Shown: piece after piece, positions 7,035 through 27,812 of the stretch
How the letters are laid out: every line of letters starts with the position of its first letter
Position numbering within the stretch: the stretch's first letter is position 1
Source of the DNA: Alphaproteobacteria bacterium
GTDB lineage: Bacteria; Pseudomonadota; Alphaproteobacteria; CAAHEQ01; UBA3637
Length of the DNA stretch: 64,000 bases
Direction of reading: 5' to 3'
Assembly: GCA_017533325.1 (NCBI GenBank)
Contig: JAFXIF010000061.1
Span: 28-64,027 of the forward strand
Made by a program: the position numbers and the translations under genes
The notes under the pieces: model-generated
The model's database searches: none
The model's input: only the letters and a program-made list of their open reading frames with translations
What the model was told of the DNA's origin: nothing

Positions 7035-9371
7035 TCAGTTTTTAAAAAAACTTTTAAGCCGTGTCGAATTTTTTGAAAGTTCAGTAAATGTTTTCCCCTC
7101 TGCATCTTTTAAATTTAAATCCACATTATTTTCAATCATCACCTCTACAAAAGGATGATATCCGACTAAAACCGCTAAATGAAGCAAAGGAAGTTTTGTT
7201 TTTTCATCTATTGAATTAACATCTGCTCCCGCTTTTAAAAGGATTTTAAAATATTTCATATCCTGTTGCAATAATGCCTGCCTCAACTCTAAATATCCAA
7301 GATTTTTTATTCTGTTTTGCCGGCAAAAACAGTTATTTTTCATCAAAAGGACAACAGCTTCTCGATATGAAAATGTTAAAGCCCATTCAATTGGTGTTTT
7401 TTGATACAAGTAAATTTCATTTAAATGCGCTTTTTTTTCAATTGCTTTTTCAACATAAGGAAGATTATTCGTTAAAATACCTTGAAACAACAAACATTCA
7501 TAAATCTTCCTTTGGCTTTCATAACGCGCAAAAAAGTTTTTATAGTTTTGCGATTTTTTTTGAATTAAGGAAGCACAACTTTGCCCCTCTTCATTCAAAA
7601 GGTAAGGATCAGCCCCATTTGCAAGTAAAAACTTAAAAGCTCCAAAATTATCTTTTTGAATCGCTAAATGAAGAGGTGTCTGTTTATTTTCATCCATCTC
7701 ATTTAAATCTTGGTTTTTACAATCCAAAAATTCAAAAACATGATCTTTTGGGCTTAAAACCGCAAAATGAAAAATCGTTTTTCCTTCAACATCCTTTTCA
7801 CTCAAGGAAGCATTCTTTCCTAAAAGTAATTTTATAATTTTTTTATTGCCGATTTCAAACGCTTTCATTAATGGGGTTTGTTTTTTATAATCTGATTTTT
7901 CTATATCCGGATTCAATGCAAGAATAGATTTAACCAAATTCTCGTTTTCATTACAAACCGCATGAAAAAGAAGTGTTCTTCCTTTACAATCAATGGCGTT
8001 TATATCTATTTTATTTATACCTTTGGTCAGCTTATTTACTTTACCATCCGTTAAGTTCGTTAACAGTCTTGTTAATTCTTTTTGTTTTTCACTCTTCTCT
8101 AATTTCTTTGTCAAATTTAAATCTTTTAACAAAAGATGATATAAAAGAAATAAATTTTGTTCCACAACATCAAGTTGCCGGTGAATCATTTTATTCATTT
8201 CACTGAGAGCTACTTTTAACATTAAGCCGGAAACATAAGGCATAAAAATAATAAAAGCATTCTTTAAAATAAATTTCATAAGCTTTTTTAAATAGGCTTT
8301 TTCGAAAGCTAATCTCCTATTTAAGGCATATAAAAATTTATCCGGCTCCACCGGTATTTTTTCCAACGGCATATCCGAAACAAAAAGATGTTTTTTTAAA
8401 AGAAACTTCAAATATGCTGCATAAGCCGTTTCTAATTTGAATGGTAGCGAAAATTCTGTTTTAAGCTTTCTCCAATCAGTGTGAATATTCATAATATCTT
8501 GCAACTGAACGGATAAAGAAAATTTTTGCCACAAATCTCCCCATTTTGATTTTTCGCTTTCAGAAACAGCATTGAATAAATCAGCTTCTGAAATCTGAAT
8601 ATTTTTATTTAGCCCTTCTTGTTCTTTCTTTAAAATCTTATCTTGAACAAATAACACCTCTTCAAATAAGTCTTTAAAAAACTTTTGAAAAACAGATTGG
8701 CTATTTTGCGCTGTATCCCAATCTAAATTCTCATTTTGCTTAAATAAATCACATTTTTTTTGAACTATGTCTAAAAAAATCTGACACATATCCTCTAAGT
8801 TCAAAGGTTTTAAGTCTTCAAAAGATTTTCCCTCGTTATAAAAAAATTGTTGTTCGCTCATATTCAAGCTTAAAGGATACAAATCAAAATCTTCTTTAAA
8901 TTCAACAAGATGCGGTTGATTTTCAACTTGCCATTCAAAACTTGTTTCATCAGAGTCTAAACAAACATTTTTGGAATTTTTTTTCTTTTTTTCAAGAATA
9001 TTTTCCCTCATTCTTAAACAAGCTTCTAAAAAAACCGGTCTAAGCGGTGAATTTGTTTTTTTTAAAATATTGACGATAAAAAGATCATCATCAAATTGCT
9101 TAAACGATAATAAAAGCTCATTATATTCCCTAATCAAATTTAATTTGTCATATAATGAATATTTCGATTTTTCTTCAAACGAAAAAAAAAGCTCAACTTC
9201 TTTTTGCCAAATGGCTAAAATGATTTTTTCAAAAGTTTTAAACTGCACTTCAAAATCAGAAAGATTTTTTAAATCCTGCAACCACTTTTTTTGTTCTTTT
9301 AACACCGGTAAAGTTTTTTGCATTTGAGTAGCGTTTGTATTGAAAATTAAATCAGATGAGTCTTGAAACAT
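7035..9371 (-). CDS. Ankyrin-repeat protein with a large N-terminal domain of unknown function (effector-like)
   Basis: The C-terminal ~320 aa contain about 7 ANK-like repeats, e.g. GRTLLFHAVCNENENLVKSILALNPDIEKSD, KQTPLHLAIQKDNFGAFKFLLANGADPY and KLPLLHLAVLVGYHPFVEVMIENNVDLNLKD. The start is set at Met12 (ATG 9371), which has a GGAG RBS 8 nt upstream, because the predicted -10 element overlaps the ORF-track ATG at 9404. Confidence 0.85.
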   Translation of the reverse strand: MFQDSSDLIFNTNATQMQKTLPVLKEQKKWLQDLKNLSDFEVQFKTFEKIILAIWQKEVELFFSFEEKSKYSLYDKLNLIREYNELLLSFKQFDDDLFIVNILKKTNSPLRPVFLEACLRMRENILEKKKKNSKNVCLDSDETSFEWQVENQPHLVEFKEDFDLYPLSLNMSEQQFFYNEGKSFEDLKPLNLEDMCQIFLDIVQKKCDLFKQNENLDWDTAQNSQSVFQKFFKDLFEEVLFVQDKILKKEQEGLNKNIQISEADLFNAVSESEKSKWGDLWQKFSLSVQLQDIMNIHTDWRKLKTEFSLPFKLETAYAAYLKFLLKKHLFVSDMPLEKIPVEPDKFLYALNRRLAFEKAYLKKLMKFILKNAFIIFMPYVSGLMLKVALSEMNKMIHRQLDVVEQNLFLLYHLLLKDLNLTKKLEKSEKQKELTRLLTNLTDGKVNKLTKGINKIDINAIDCKGRTLLFHAVCNENENLVKSILALNPDIEKSDYKKQTPLMKAFEIGNKKIIKLLLGKNASLSEKDVEGKTIFHFAVLSPKDHVFEFLDCKNQDLNEMDENKQTPLHLAIQKDNFGAFKFLLANGADPYLLNEEGQSCASLIQKKSQNYKNFFARYESQRKIYECLLFQGILTNNLPYVEKAIEKKAHLNEIYLYQKTPIEWALTFSYREAVVLLMKNNCFCRQNRIKNLGYLELRQALLQQDMKYFKILLKAGADVNSIDEKTKLPLLHLAVLVGYHPFVEVMIENNVDLNLKDAEGKTFTELSKNSTRLKSFFKN

Positions 9372-9395
9372 AAAATAAACTCCAAAAAACAACTT

Positions 9396-9424
9396 ATGAT
9401 ACATAAAATTTTATGATTTGTCAA
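9396..9424 (-). promoter_or_regulatory. Putative sigma70-type promoter (TTGACA-17 nt-TATCAT) of the ankyrin gene
   Basis: On the minus strand, TTGACA is at 9424-9419 and TATCAT at 9401-9396, with a 17-nt spacer. Confidence 0.4.
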
Positions 9425-19806: not shown

Positions 19807-20568
19807 ATGCGCAAAATTAAAATTTTCATTCTTTATTTTTGTTTGATGTTTACCCTGCCCGTTTTGGCCAATCAAGAAGCAAGTTCAATGGGCGAAAAAT
19901 CACTACCCCAAATTGTTTCATCACTGACAAAAAACATCAAAAATCCATTAAAAAAAGCAAAAGTTCTTGCTGTTTTTATTGCTGAACATTATGAGCGTGA
20001 CGGATTTATAAAAAAAGAAAAAGATAATGCCGCCAAAAGAGGAAAAATATATAAAATTCCTTATCAAAGCAATCTTTTTGAAACAAAAATCGGGGATAGC
20101 TATGCTTTTGCCGATTTATATCAACAAATGTGTCAATTAGCCGGATTAGAAGCGGTTGTCATTGAAGGATATAGCGGCCGGCGAATTGAAGCTTTCTCGG
20201 TTAAAAGAAAAGAGCAAAAAGCCATTAAACAAGCATTCAATATGCTTTCAGGGAAACAAGATTCATCTTTGGAACGGTATAAATCCGCATGGAATGCTGT
20301 TAAAATCGATGACAAATGGATTTTAGTCGATACATATTGGATGATTAAAGGTGAAAAATACAGCTATAAAAACATCCAATCGGAAAAACGCATGAAACGT
20401 ATCCTAAAACAAAATCAAGGCAAAAAACTTTCCAAGAAAAATTCTTCCATCGATATGGATTTTTTTGATGCAAAACCAAAAGATATGATTAAAACTCATT
20501 TTCCTTTTGATGAAACTTATCAACTTTTGAAAAATCCTTATTCTTTAAATCGTTTTTTAAATCAATAG
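19807..20568 (+). CDS. Secreted transglutaminase-like fold protein (catalytic Cys/His apparently substituted)
   Basis: The start is set at ATG 19807, with a perfect AAGGAGG RBS 7 nt upstream. The signal peptide is MRKIKIFILYFCLMFTLPVLA. The stretches GDSYAFADLYQQMCQLAGLEAVVIEGY and SAWNAVKIDDKWILVDTYW resemble the transglutaminase-core G-x-C...H-x-W...D layout, but with Ser at the Cys and His positions. This is a by-eye alignment. Confidence 0.45.
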   Translation: MRKIKIFILYFCLMFTLPVLANQEASSMGEKSLPQIVSSLTKNIKNPLKKAKVLAVFIAEHYERDGFIKKEKDNAAKRGKIYKIPYQSNLFETKIGDSYAFADLYQQMCQLAGLEAVVIEGYSGRRIEAFSVKRKEQKAIKQAFNMLSGKQDSSLERYKSAWNAVKIDDKWILVDTYWMIKGEKYSYKNIQSEKRMKRILKQNQGKKLSKKNSSIDMDFFDAKPKDMIKTHFPFDETYQLLKNPYSLNRFLNQ

Positions 20569-20651: not shown

Positions 20652-21785
20652 ATGACAATGGGAACAGTTCAATCAAAATGGCAACAAATTAACGGCAGTA
20701 ACATGCTTGTTTTGGTTCGTGAAACCGGGGAAACGGTTGCTCTTCCGATTGAACAAGTTTATCAAATTTTAAATCCGGTTGTAATCGATCAAGATGGGGC
20801 GCCAACTTTTTTAGTTGATGTAACAGATGCCATAACCCCTCAACAAAAACAAGCTTTGTATAACACTCCGACACCGCGCTTTGTGTCAAGTCCCTATCGC
20901 ATAACTTATGCCGAACTTGCTTCAATTTCACAAACGGGGAAACCGGTTATTGAGTCCCTTCAAAATCAATCAAACACGCAAAGCATTAATCTTGCCGGTG
21001 CTATGACGGGATTAGCCGGCGTGGCAAGTTTAGGTGCCAGAAGCACAAATTCCATCACAAGCGGAGTCAACAGCATTTCCAATGGGGTCGGAAATTTACA
21101 AAATATTGACAGTATATCCGATGTTTCTCGTGGCACAACTCAACTTTCCAATGGGCTTAATCGTTTTGCAAACTTAACGAACAATGGCAATGCCGCCGTT
21201 GATGCCACACAAGGAACGGATGATCGAAATTTCTTTTTGTCAGCCGGCAATTGGCTTGATAATTCTTTATTTGGATCTATTGCCGATCTTATGCCGATAG
21301 ATATGTTAAAAAAAGCTGTCAAAATGATCGGCGGATGTATTTCAGGTCTTTTCAAAACCCTTGGATATATCATTGAAGGGGAATGGGATAAAGCCGGATC
21401 TGTCGGGTTAAGTTGGTTAAAAGATGCAGCCGTTACCGGCGCCTTAACCTATGGAGCCTATTATCTCGGAAAAGAACTCAATTTATTTGGGAAAGAGGAT
21501 GAAGATGAAAACACCTCTTCAAATTCAGGAAGCAATTCTAATGATAACTCTAACGATAATTCTAATAACACCCCAACGGTTAATGTTTCCGTTTCAAAAG
21601 AAGATTCATTAGAATTGGTTCATAGGCCCAGCTCAAACAGCACTCCTGTTGCCGTTTTAGATCAAGCCGGAAAAATCATCACGACCGGACAAAGTCATTT
21701 ATCAGGCACCAGCACCATTTTAAATAATGGAAATTCCTCAACTGTGTTTGAATACACAATTAATCAAAAAGTGGATACAAAATAA
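20652..21785 (+). CDS. Hypothetical S/N/G-rich protein with a central hydrophobic region (orphan, effector-like)
   Basis: 377 aa in five parts: a globular N-terminal ~100 aa; a low-complexity S/N/G/T region; a hydrophobic/amphipathic block (IGGCISGLFKTLGYII...AAVTGALTYGAYYLG); an acidic stretch with SNSGSNSNDNSNDNSNN repeats; and an S/T-rich tail. No family recognised. Confidence 0.6.
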   Translation: MTMGTVQSKWQQINGSNMLVLVRETGETVALPIEQVYQILNPVVIDQDGAPTFLVDVTDAITPQQKQALYNTPTPRFVSSPYRITYAELASISQTGKPVIESLQNQSNTQSINLAGAMTGLAGVASLGARSTNSITSGVNSISNGVGNLQNIDSISDVSRGTTQLSNGLNRFANLTNNGNAAVDATQGTDDRNFFLSAGNWLDNSLFGSIADLMPIDMLKKAVKMIGGCISGLFKTLGYIIEGEWDKAGSVGLSWLKDAAVTGALTYGAYYLGKELNLFGKEDEDENTSSNSGSNSNDNSNDNSNNTPTVNVSVSKEDSLELVHRPSSNSTPVAVLDQAGKIITTGQSHLSGTSTILNNGNSSTVFEYTINQKVDTK

Positions 21786-22472: not shown

Positions 22473-22508
22473 TTTCTTAAAAAATTCTTGTTTCTTAAAA
22501 AATTCTTG
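22473..22508 (+). repeat. Perfect 18-bp tandem duplication (tttcttaaaaaattcttg x2) upstream of the GT80-like gene
   Basis: Units at 22473-22490 and 22491-22508 are identical as read. They lie 34 nt upstream of ATG 22542. Confidence 0.75.
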
Positions 22509-22541
22509 ATTTTTTCTATATTTAAATTTACTCTTTTTTAT

Positions 22542-23888
22542 ATGGGAAGATTAAGGATCAAAATCTTTATTGTTTTTATTTGTTGCATCACAGTTTTGTT
22601 TCAACAAAGAAACACTCAGCATTTGCACCTTTATTTTGATCCGGCAACAACACCGGCCTTAGTTCAAATGACCCATTTTATAAATTTACCGCCAAATGAT
22701 TTAAAAATCATCAGTTGGAATAGATTTCATAATCATATTAAAAACAAAAAACAATTCCCAAACACCGATTTTTTTATTACCGATAAGAATGATTTTAACA
22801 ATTCTTCTCTTGTTTTCCAAAAAATTGAAAAAATCCTTCAAACCCAACAAAATGTTCATATACATTTACACTTTAATTTATTGCATCCCGCCATTTATAA
22901 TTTTCTTTCAAGCCACCCGAAAACAAAAGATAAAATCAAATCTGTTCACGTGTATGAAGATGCCAGCGGCCATTTTTTAAGAGATGCGAACAAAGATGAT
23001 TTTTTAACTTCTTTACCTAAAAATTCAACGCTTTATCATTGGGGAAATCTCTCAAAAATTTGCTCTGACAATTCCTTTTCAAGATGCTCACAAATCAAAA
23101 AAATTAAAAAAAACATCTCGTTAAAAGAAATCAATTTTCAAAAATTAGCACACACATTCACCGAAAAGAAGCGAAAAAAACTATTTGATTTAACCGGATT
23201 TGATTATGAAAAAACAAAAAAACTTTTATCCGGAAAAAAAACATATTTTTATATTTTAGGGTATGACTGGCAAAAACCTGTTATCGGCGCCCAATTAGCA
23301 GCATTAAAATATCTTTGTCAACCCTCCTCAAAAACAGGCACTCCAAAAGAAGGGGAAACAGCAAGTTCAAGTCAGTCTTATTGGTTTTATAAAAATCATC
23401 CGAGCGAATTAAATATGCCAAGACACGTCATTCTTGATCATTTATGCCCCAATATAAAATCCATTGCAACACACCTTCCTTTTGAACTTTTAATCCTAAG
23501 TGATTTATCCCCACATAATGTTGCCGGTTTTTCATCAAGTCTTTTTTTCAATTTATCTTCCGAACAAATAGCCGTTTATCTTGAAAGAGCAAATGACCCT
23601 TATCGCAACATTCTTGAAAAAAACGCGCTTATCCATCCCAACAAAATATGGACTCAAAAAGAAATTGATAAACATTTAAAAGAATCCAATATATTTGAAT
23701 TTATCGAAGATGACAACAAATCAAGCTGGTTTTTAAAAATAAATGAAAACAAAATGCTAAACATTTTCAAAAATGAAGAAGTAAAAATCATTGAACAGAC
23801 AAAAAATGATTTTGTCATTCAAAAAAACAAAAAGGACATCCATACCTATCAATTTCAAAAAGATTATCAATGGCTTAAAAAACCTTAA
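22542..23888 (+). CDS. Membrane-anchored GT80-like glycosyltransferase (PmST1-type sialyltransferase homolog), copy 1
   Basis: The start is set at ATG 22542 (MGRLRIKIFIVFICCITVLF signal anchor). Motifs match those recalled for Pasteurella multocida PmST1 (PmST1 form in brackets): LYFDPATTPALVQM (LYLDPASLPALNQL), HIHLHFNLLH (LNIHLNIAH), VYEDASG (LYDDGS), YKNHP (FKGHP), LPFELL (ISFEVL), VAGFSSSLFFNL (VGGVASSLYFSL). Confidence 0.65.
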   Translation: MGRLRIKIFIVFICCITVLFQQRNTQHLHLYFDPATTPALVQMTHFINLPPNDLKIISWNRFHNHIKNKKQFPNTDFFITDKNDFNNSSLVFQKIEKILQTQQNVHIHLHFNLLHPAIYNFLSSHPKTKDKIKSVHVYEDASGHFLRDANKDDFLTSLPKNSTLYHWGNLSKICSDNSFSRCSQIKKIKKNISLKEINFQKLAHTFTEKKRKKLFDLTGFDYEKTKKLLSGKKTYFYILGYDWQKPVIGAQLAALKYLCQPSSKTGTPKEGETASSSQSYWFYKNHPSELNMPRHVILDHLCPNIKSIATHLPFELLILSDLSPHNVAGFSSSLFFNLSSEQIAVYLERANDPYRNILEKNALIHPNKIWTQKEIDKHLKESNIFEFIEDDNKSSWFLKINENKMLNIFKNEEVKIIEQTKNDFVIQKNKKDIHTYQFQKDYQWLKKP

Positions 23889-26526: not shown

Positions 26527-27812
26527 ATGAAAACGATATTAAAATTAAGTGTTGTTTTTATTCTTTTATTTTGTGCTTACTTTACCTATACACCACCACC
26601 AAAAATTCATGTTTATTATGATCCGGCAACCTCGCCTGCTTTATTGCAAATGGTTGATTTTATTAATCAGGACGAGCAAGACATAAAATTCATTTTTTGG
26701 AAGAGATTTGATCAATATATTAAAAATAAAGAGAAATATCAAATACTTATTTTATAAATAACTGGGATCTTTTTTTTAAAAAACTTCAAGAAGTCTCTAA
26801 AGCAAATCCAAAATCAAAAATCATTTTACATCACAATCTCCATCATGATTATTTTTTCAATCATTTTATTGAGGTATTCCCAAAAAATAAAATTTTAGAA
26901 TCCCACGCTTATGAAGATGCTTCAAATTATATGTGGTGGTCCCCAAAAAAAGACTATATTTTCTTTAACTATCCTAAAATAAAACATAAATTGCACATGT
27001 GGGGCGATATAAAAAAACTTTGCTCAACAAAAGATGCGCACCCTCAATGTGAAAGAATCAAAAAATTAGATGATCTTATAAAAATTATACCCGTTGACTT
27101 TTATGCTCTCAAAAATAAACTCGCCCCTGATGATTTGGAAAAAATCGCAGTTCTTGCCGGCGTTGATTTAAAAAAATATCAAAAACTTCTAAAAGGGAAA
27201 AAAACAGGGATTTATTTACTCGGATTTATTGCCGGAACAAATTTAGAAAGTTTTCAACTGGTGGCATTAAAAGACCTTTGCAAAGCCTATAAGGACACCA
27301 CCTGGTTTTATAAACCACATCCCACTCATTTAAAAACACCAACTCATAAAGTTTTAACGCATCTATGTCCCAATATTAAACCTTTAAATCATCAGATTCC
27401 TTTCGAATTTTTGATTTTATCAGGTTTAGCGCCACAATATGTTGCCGGAATCGGCTCTTCAACTTTTGCAAATTTAAACCCTGAAAATATCCTTTTTTAT
27501 ATTCAACGAGGATATGTTGATTCTTATACGAACACGTTAAAAAAGGCAAAAATTCTCCCTGAAAAAGGAAAAGTTATTACACCTGAACAATCAATAAAAA
27601 AAATAATGAAACTTAATATGTTTTTTATCGGTAACGCTGGATGGTTTATCAAAATTGATAATGAATATTGCAAGATGACGCAAAATGAGTGTTACACAAT
27701 CGTTGAGGACACTCCCACAACAAAAACATTCAAAAACAAGAAAAATCAATTAGTTAAAACAAAACATATTGAGTCTTATAAGTGGTCAAAATTTGAACTC
27801 ATCAACGAATAA
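26527..27812 (+). pseudogene. GT80-like glycosyltransferase, copy 2, interrupted by a single frameshift near 26740-26745
   Basis: ORF 26527-26757 (signal anchor plus VYYDPATSPALLQMVDF) is in a different frame from the open frame 26730-27812 (NWDLFF..ILHHNLHH..AYEDAS..YKPHP..IPFEFL..VAGIGSSTFANL). Joined at tat-caa-a/at-act, the two pieces align with copy 1 across its whole length. Confidence 0.65.

Follow-up and report, generated by a model that had tools for sequence, protein, structure and literature searches.

Do two open reading frames that lie end to end on the forward strand of this alphaproteobacterial DNA represent the halves of one broken gene and, if so, is the break a mutation carried by the organism, an error of its assembly, or a site at which expression is controlled? 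The two frames are found within the window, by which we mean the whole 64,000-nucleotide stretch of DNA that was analysed, and a first-pass annotation had described them as a second GT80-like paralogue split by a single frameshift. This description is borne out, since both pieces match the intact paralogue, referred to here as copy 1, far above chance. In BLASTP comparisons with copy 1, the N-terminal piece aligns with 43% identity over 67 residues (E 7e-18), which establishes the supposed kinship of this short peptide with copy 1, and the C-terminal piece aligns with 35% identity over 366 columns (E 3e-57). In alignment A2 the two pieces meet end to end on copy 1 and do not overlap. Both are also collinear with the intact orthologues, which occupy a conserved slot flanked by cmk and an FMN reductase gene. 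A joined product of about 428 amino acids had been predicted, and all intact orthologues are 428 amino acids long.

The upstream open reading frame (26527-26757, + strand) has 76 codons and translates as MKTILKLSVVFILLFCAYFTYTPPPKIHVYYDPATSPALLQMVDFINQDEQDIKFIFWKRFDQYIKNKEKYQILIL followed by a stop codon. Its 76-residue peptide begins with a hydrophobic N-terminal anchor, continues with VYYDPATSPALLQMVDF, and ends in KEKYQILIL. Residues 1-71 are native and equal residues 1-71 of the protein encoded by an intact allele (P0015), while the last five residues (QILIL) are an out-of-frame read-on to a TAA codon. The predicted transmembrane anchor spans residues 2-20, which form a helix in the AF2 model of an intact orthologue (P0001), and after it comes the first beta-alpha-beta unit of the N-terminal Rossmann half.

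The downstream frame (26730-27812, + strand) is offset by -1 relative to the upstream one (26527 mod 3 = 1; 26730 mod 3 = 0), overlaps it by 28 nt (26730-26757), and is open from 26730 to a stop codon at 27810-27812. It contains the motifs NWDLFF, ILHHNLHH, AYEDAS, YKPHP, IPFEFL, and VAGIGSSTFANL. From position 26742 it encodes GT80 residues 73-428, and its protein is 90% identical to P0001 and 100% identical to P0015. The longest open reading frame of this frame that begins with a start codon runs from 26931 to 27812 (+ strand) and encodes 293 amino acids, its ATG at 26931 corresponding to Met136. An identical 293-amino acid protein (P0012) has been deposited as a separate entry in NCBI nr.

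Family assignment and predicted activity

Judged by sequence and by modelled fold, copy 2 is a member of the GT80 family. The Pfam model for the PM0188 sialyltransferase (PF11477, cut-off 25 bits) matches copy 1 with 51.5 bits and the intact copy 2 orthologue P0001 with 31.0 bits; the scores for the two window pieces, taken alone, are 15.4 and 23.5 bits, which is below the cut-off. Neither GT80 copy is matched by a model in NCBIfam. Copy 1 matches the solved GT80 enzymes (2zwi, 4v2u, and PmST1) with an E-value of 3e-14. In the AF2 model of P0001 (pLDDT 88.6, pTM 0.84), the N-terminal helix (residues 2-20) is followed by a pair of Rossmann-like halves, to which a beta-rich domain is added at residues ~365-428. 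When this model was compared with the PDB using Foldseek, ranks 1-24 were all GT80 structures, with E-values of 3e-14 to 6e-12, and the next GT-B family followed at 3.5e-6.

The catalytic residues of PM0188 are Asp141, His311 of the HP motif, Glu338, and Ser355/356, and the family carries a D/E-D/E-G motif (PMC4202792). HMM alignments to 2zwi and 4v2u identify YEDAS (26910-26924, + strand) as the counterpart of the D/E-D/E-G motif, which reads YDDGS in GT80 structures, and its Asp131 is the predicted catalytic base. In all members of the subfamily this motif is E-D-A, with the Glu and Asp invariant and the Gly replaced by Ala. Likewise, the HMM alignments, read together with PMC4202792, place the HP motif at KPHP (27312-27323, + strand), with His265 as the predicted catalytic acid, the counterpart of PmST1 Glu338 at PFE (27399-27407, + strand), and the counterpart of the phosphate-binding Ser355/Ser356 pair at GSS (27453-27461, + strand). 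His265-Pro266, Glu294, and Ser311-Ser312 do not vary among the sequences of alignment A3, and they line up with the corresponding motifs in 2zwi and 4v2u. Profile matches to GT80 proteins in the PDB end near position 345-349. The C-terminal beta-rich domain (residues ~365-428, 27618-27809, + strand), delimited by AF2 secondary structure and by invariant columns, lies beyond that point and has the invariant residues Trp373, Cys382, Cys389, and Tyr418.

Two characterized enzymes offer the closest comparisons. A profile built from copy 2-type proteins finds its best match among GT80 chains of the PDB in the alpha/beta-galactoside alpha-2,3-sialyltransferase of Photobacterium phosphoreum (2zwi, E 1.4e-19), with an alignment that covers both Rossmann halves and includes the opening motif h-x-V-Y-x-D-x-A-(T/S)-x-P; identity is only 19-20%, however, and 2zwi lacks the C-terminal beta domain. 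With PmST1/PM0188 of Pasteurella multocida (2ex0, 2ihz, 3s44), the proteins studied here share the GT-B fold, the conserved Asp (YDDGS in PmST1, YEDAS here), the HP motif, the Glu of (S/P)FE, the Ser-Ser pair, an N-terminal hydrophobic anchor, and membership in PF11477 (Foldseek E 3e-14, TM 0.5-0.6). They differ from PmST1 in that identity is only 17-18% and activity is predicted here, in the replacement of the Gly of D/E-D/E-G by Ala, in having no Arg after the HP motif, in the additional C-terminal beta domain of ~65 residues, and in the host, which is a gut alphaproteobacterium here and a gammaproteobacterium in the case of PmST1.

From family membership at 15-20% identity we infer sialyltransferase activity, donor, and acceptor, and the copy 2 product is a predicted transferase of sialic acid, or of a related CMP-activated sugar, with a surface glycan as acceptor. 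No genes for CMP-sialic acid synthesis (neuA/neuB/neuC-like) were found in the 64-kb window.

The break at codon 72

DNA alignments and the list of lesions compiled from them place the break at codon 72 (26737-26745, + strand), in agreement with both the -1 offset and the junction given in the first-pass annotation. The window reads TAT-C-AAAT at this site; the sequence is TAT-CC-AAAT where the same allele occurs elsewhere and TAT-CCC-AAT in more distant alleles. At the junction, intact alleles have TATCCAAAT or TATCCCAAT, and the window has TATCAAAT. All other alleles, whether intact or otherwise broken, have one more C at codon 72. The short A-run that had been named as the possible site of an indel is therefore not the site, because the missing base is a C of a 2-3-nt C-run.

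Relative to the intact orthologues, the reading frame of copy 2 is disrupted by this one missing base, and the first downstream start codon is that of Met136. Owing to the gap at codon 72, only 71 native residues are translated before the reading goes out of frame and stops. Met136 lies five codons past the codon of the predicted catalytic Asp (26916-26918), and since the 293-amino acid frame starts after Asp131, its product cannot be an active enzyme. A product restarted at Met136 would have neither the membrane anchor nor the catalytic Asp and would lack the larger part of the N-terminal Rossmann half, so that neither piece can yield an active enzyme. Copy 2 is best described as the orthologue of an intact 428-codon gene for a putative membrane-anchored GT80 glycosyltransferase of the GT-B fold, and it is functionally off in this assembly.

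We compared the window with same-species contigs from about 20 samples, which were collected through exact look-ups of the neighbouring cmk and FMN reductase proteins. Contigs from ERZ28653715, SRR32129097, and SRR31077510 (among L014/L023, L017/L025, and L019/L031) align to copy 2 with one gap and 0 mismatches over 1286 nt. The intact protein P0015, encoded by an uninterrupted 428-codon frame, is present on four contigs from independent metagenome assemblies, and a partial contig from ERZ28653793 also has the extra base at codon 72. Given that, apart from this base, the allele matches intact copies from other samples at every position, the lesion would be extremely young, and it may be regarded as a nascent pseudogene that is specific to this strain or to this assembly. 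Copy 2 of the window has 0 substitutions relative to the intact allele, and no decay following the lesion is seen; with zero divergence since the break, the lesion is too young for relaxed selection to show.

An exact-pattern scan for the frameshifted junction gave 0 matches in the collections of genome contigs and metagenome contigs. The intact junction is also absent from the metagenome contigs, which means that this collection does not include the species. Exact look-ups of the 466-amino acid copy 1 protein, the 76-amino acid peptide, and the 293-amino acid protein returned no matches, and the single-C form was not found in any second assembly among those searched.

Decay and diversity of copy 2 within the species

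A sister clade of alleles, which has 95% nucleotide identity to copy 2 of the window, carries nested lesions on five contigs that represent five independent samples. A TGC-to-TGA change at the invariant Cys166 is the only lesion in L013. In L018, TGA166 is accompanied by a 1-nt deletion at codon 37, and in L015, L016, and L022, TGA166 and the codon 37 deletion are joined by a further 1-nt deletion at codon 138. Since identical lesions recur in independent assemblies, they are not an assembly artefact, and the nested series is the stepwise decay of a dead gene. Loss of copy 2, which had been postulated from the window, does occur in the species. Reassignment of TGA as a sense codon in this clade is ruled out because frameshifts pile up behind TGA166. 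More fragment proteins fall into the 90% cluster, namely P0013 (on 5 contigs), P0016, P0017, P0020, and P0021.

No gene of the locus has diverged more within the species than copy 2, with 93-96% identity, whereas parE, the FMN reductase gene, rsmB, ftsZ, and ftsA are 98-99.8% identical. The dN/dS values of intact copy 2 alleles lie between 0.19 and 0.42, which corresponds to purifying selection and indicates that copy 2 is functional where it is intact. The lesion in the window fits a pattern seen across the species, in which the two GT80 paralogues belong to the accessory genes, show unusual diversity, and have been lost repeatedly.

As a separate observation, codons 78-83 of copy 2 in the clade of L013 (window 26757-26775) read TDRNLL in place of NNWDLF, resembling ITDKNDF of copy 1. 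This cluster of changes may reflect gene conversion by the paralogue over a short tract.

Mutation, assembly error or regulated expression

What the window shows is either a gene at the outset of an ordinary loss or an assembly that has slipped by a single base. If the assembly or its consensus is in error, the true sequence has two Cs and the gene, with its 428 codons, is intact in the organism, the base having been dropped while the sequence was being built or polished. Four independent assemblies and a fifth, partial one carry the identical allele in intact form, which is consistent with such a slip, as are the occurrence of the frameshifted junction nowhere else among the searched sequences and the lack of any further mutation in copy 2. 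The wider alignment argues the other way. Between positions 19942 and 45472, the window differs from scaffold_2528 of the same strain (ERZ28653715) by ~45 substitutions, and the copy 2 lesion is the sole indel in these 25.5 kb. Homopolymers are the usual sites of indel errors in assemblies and consensus sequences, but the lesion lies at a CC pair, and the homopolymers of the two sequences are equal in length throughout (399 of at least 5 nt, 168 of at least 6 nt, and 16 of at least 8 nt). Because all 399 agree and the site is a CC pair, a sequencing error of the homopolymer type is unlikely; an error process that spares every homopolymer and yet strikes the CC pair in copy 2 is possible, but not likely. 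Moreover, the gene has been lost independently within the species, so that a real mutation here would be unsurprising. On balance we consider an assembly slip unlikely, though well short of negligible, and we favour, with a probability of about 0.65, the reading that the break in copy 2 is a real mutation, very young and confined to the strain, by which an accessory and hypervariable surface-glycan gene has lost its function.

Two further readings leave the base truly missing and give the break a regulatory role. Low-efficiency recoding, which the first-pass annotation had listed, would produce a low level of full-length protein by programmed -1 ribosomal frameshifting or transcriptional slippage, and a -1 shift inside the 28-nt overlap would indeed join the two frames. 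However, the upstream frame has no in-frame X_XXY_YYZ heptamer, the 121 nt downstream fold no better than shuffled sequences (z = +0.61), and the overlap contains no long A/T run, the T8A6 run at 26771-26784 coming only after the stop codon. Nor is the shift conserved, since every other allele is in frame at codon 72. With neither slippery heptamer nor structure nor conservation, programmed frameshifting was rejected, and we see next to no chance that recoding of any kind operates here. Phase variation would instead make the off state reversible, through mutational on/off switching of a surface sialyltransferase with an effect like that of the repeat-controlled lipooligosaccharide (LOS) genes of Haemophilus. 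Surface-glycan transferases, including sialyltransferases, are classical phase-variable genes (PMC3938747, PMC6479036), and the on and off forms of copy 2 do occur on an identical allele background. The lesion site is only CC, however, without a simple-sequence tract, and the other lesions of the gene are at different sites, one of them being a nonsense substitution. The frameshifts at codons 37 and 138 are likewise outside long repeats; since none of the three frameshift sites has a repeat tract, repeat-mediated phase variation was rejected. The sister-clade lesions accumulate irreversibly, which points to decay and not to switching, and we hold phase variation in any form to be very improbable.

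The two known situations that most resemble the locus lead to the same distinction between switching and loss. The lic3A gene of Haemophilus influenzae encodes an enzyme of a different glycosyltransferase family (GT42). It is a phase-variable LOS sialyltransferase gene that is turned on and off by frameshifts among close strains (PMC3938747, PMC6479036), and it resembles the predicted surface-glycan sialyltransferase gene described here in existing in both states. In lic3A, switching is reversible and depends on a tetranucleotide repeat tract, whereas here there is no tract and the sister clade decays irreversibly. Ordinary young bacterial pseudogenes likewise have one inactivating lesion, intact orthologues in close relatives, and lesions that build up in a related lineage. 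Nothing essential sets copy 2 apart from these; what is special is that its allele is otherwise identical to intact copies. The overall picture holds nothing that is surprising to a specialist.

Copy 1 and the age of the duplication

Copy 1 is intact and encodes 448 amino acids from an ATG (22542-23888, + strand). This ATG is the start of the 448-amino acid gene-caller predictions in sister contigs L013-L015; the open reading frame itself opens at a TTG at 22488 and has 466 codons (22488-23888). Copy 1-type proteins (P0010, P0011) group apart from copy 2-type proteins (P0003-P0006). In L006, a relative with housekeeping genes ~80% identical to those of the window at the nucleotide level, the slot between rrf and parE and the slot between cmk and the FMN reductase gene each hold the matching type, and the copy 2 slot is also filled in L007-L009. 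Because both slots were already occupied by the matching type in L006, and because the copies are only 35-43% identical, the duplication is old, as the first-pass annotation had proposed. No third paralogue was found in the window.

Copy 1 has also been lost within the species. On a contig from ERR11638249 it is truncated by a 925-bp frame-shifting deletion (window 22666-23599; L035:1549-1557) between two 9-bp direct repeats, AAATGACCC. A different type of change is seen in the copy 1 allele of the L001 type (L001:3997-5337), which has only 61% protein identity to that of the window in spite of flanking genes with 98-99% DNA identity. From the sequence comparison, this looks like an allele replacement by recombination at a surface-glycan gene.

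Two minor observations concern the copy 1 slot. In a more distant MAG, the slot between rrf and parE holds only a ~160-residue stretch that is weakly GT80-like (L007:4665-5132) and that may be a remnant of copy 1. In L027 (5969-6046), the end of the contig folds back inside copy 1 as an inverted duplicate of ~80 nt, which is most likely an assembly artefact of a metagenome contig and not a lesion.

Significance and surroundings of the locus

For annotation purposes, the 76-amino acid and 293-amino acid open reading frames should be joined in a single GT80 gene entry that is flagged as frameshifted, and the NCBI nr entry P0012 belongs to this frameshifted gene and is not a protein in its own right. 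GT80 has so far been known mainly from enzymes of Pasteurellaceae and Vibrionaceae that are used in chemoenzymatic sialylation. The locus extends the range of the family to gut Alphaproteobacteria, and the intact alleles are candidate new sialyltransferases; no paper on GT80 in Alphaproteobacteria was found in the searchable literature. Within one species, the GT80 genes form a series of states that can be read as on, just off, and decaying, with an identical allele present both on and off. Turnover at the locus has taken the routes of stepwise decay in the sister clade, repeat-mediated deletion of the other paralogue, and apparent allele replacement, and the locus offers a small, clean case of the turnover of an accessory surface-glycan gene within an uncultured gut commensal species.

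A broader proposal, which we put forward as speculation and consider doubtful as a whole, is that the GT80 pair may constitute a hypervariable surface-sialylation module that serves in mimicry of host glycans. It would turn over through allele replacement and recurrent, repeat-independent loss-of-function mutations under selection by phage or host immunity, and the event in the window would be one caught just as it begins. The family with the conserved C-terminal beta domain would then represent a new branch of GT80, found in Alphaproteobacteria and specific for an acceptor of its own.

The genes of the locus are rrf, copy 1, a parE/gyrB-type topoisomerase subunit gene, cmk, copy 2, the FMN reductase gene, and rsmB, and the housekeeping cluster ftsZ-ftsA-ftsQ-ddl-murB-murC also lies in the surroundings of the GT80 genes. 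The nearest named genomes are entered as 'MAG: Alphaproteobacteria bacterium' and come from yak rectum and from the colon or rumen of roe deer. Elsewhere in the window, a 377-amino acid open reading frame (20652-21785, + strand) with a Ser/Asn-rich low-complexity stretch is conserved in the species (L001, L014, L035); neither Pfam nor NCBIfam has a model that matches it, and it adjoins a gene for a transglutaminase-core protein. The window also encodes a 789-amino acid protein with ankyrin repeats (7035-9404, - strand), a eukaryote-like type of repeat that is often found in host-associated bacteria.
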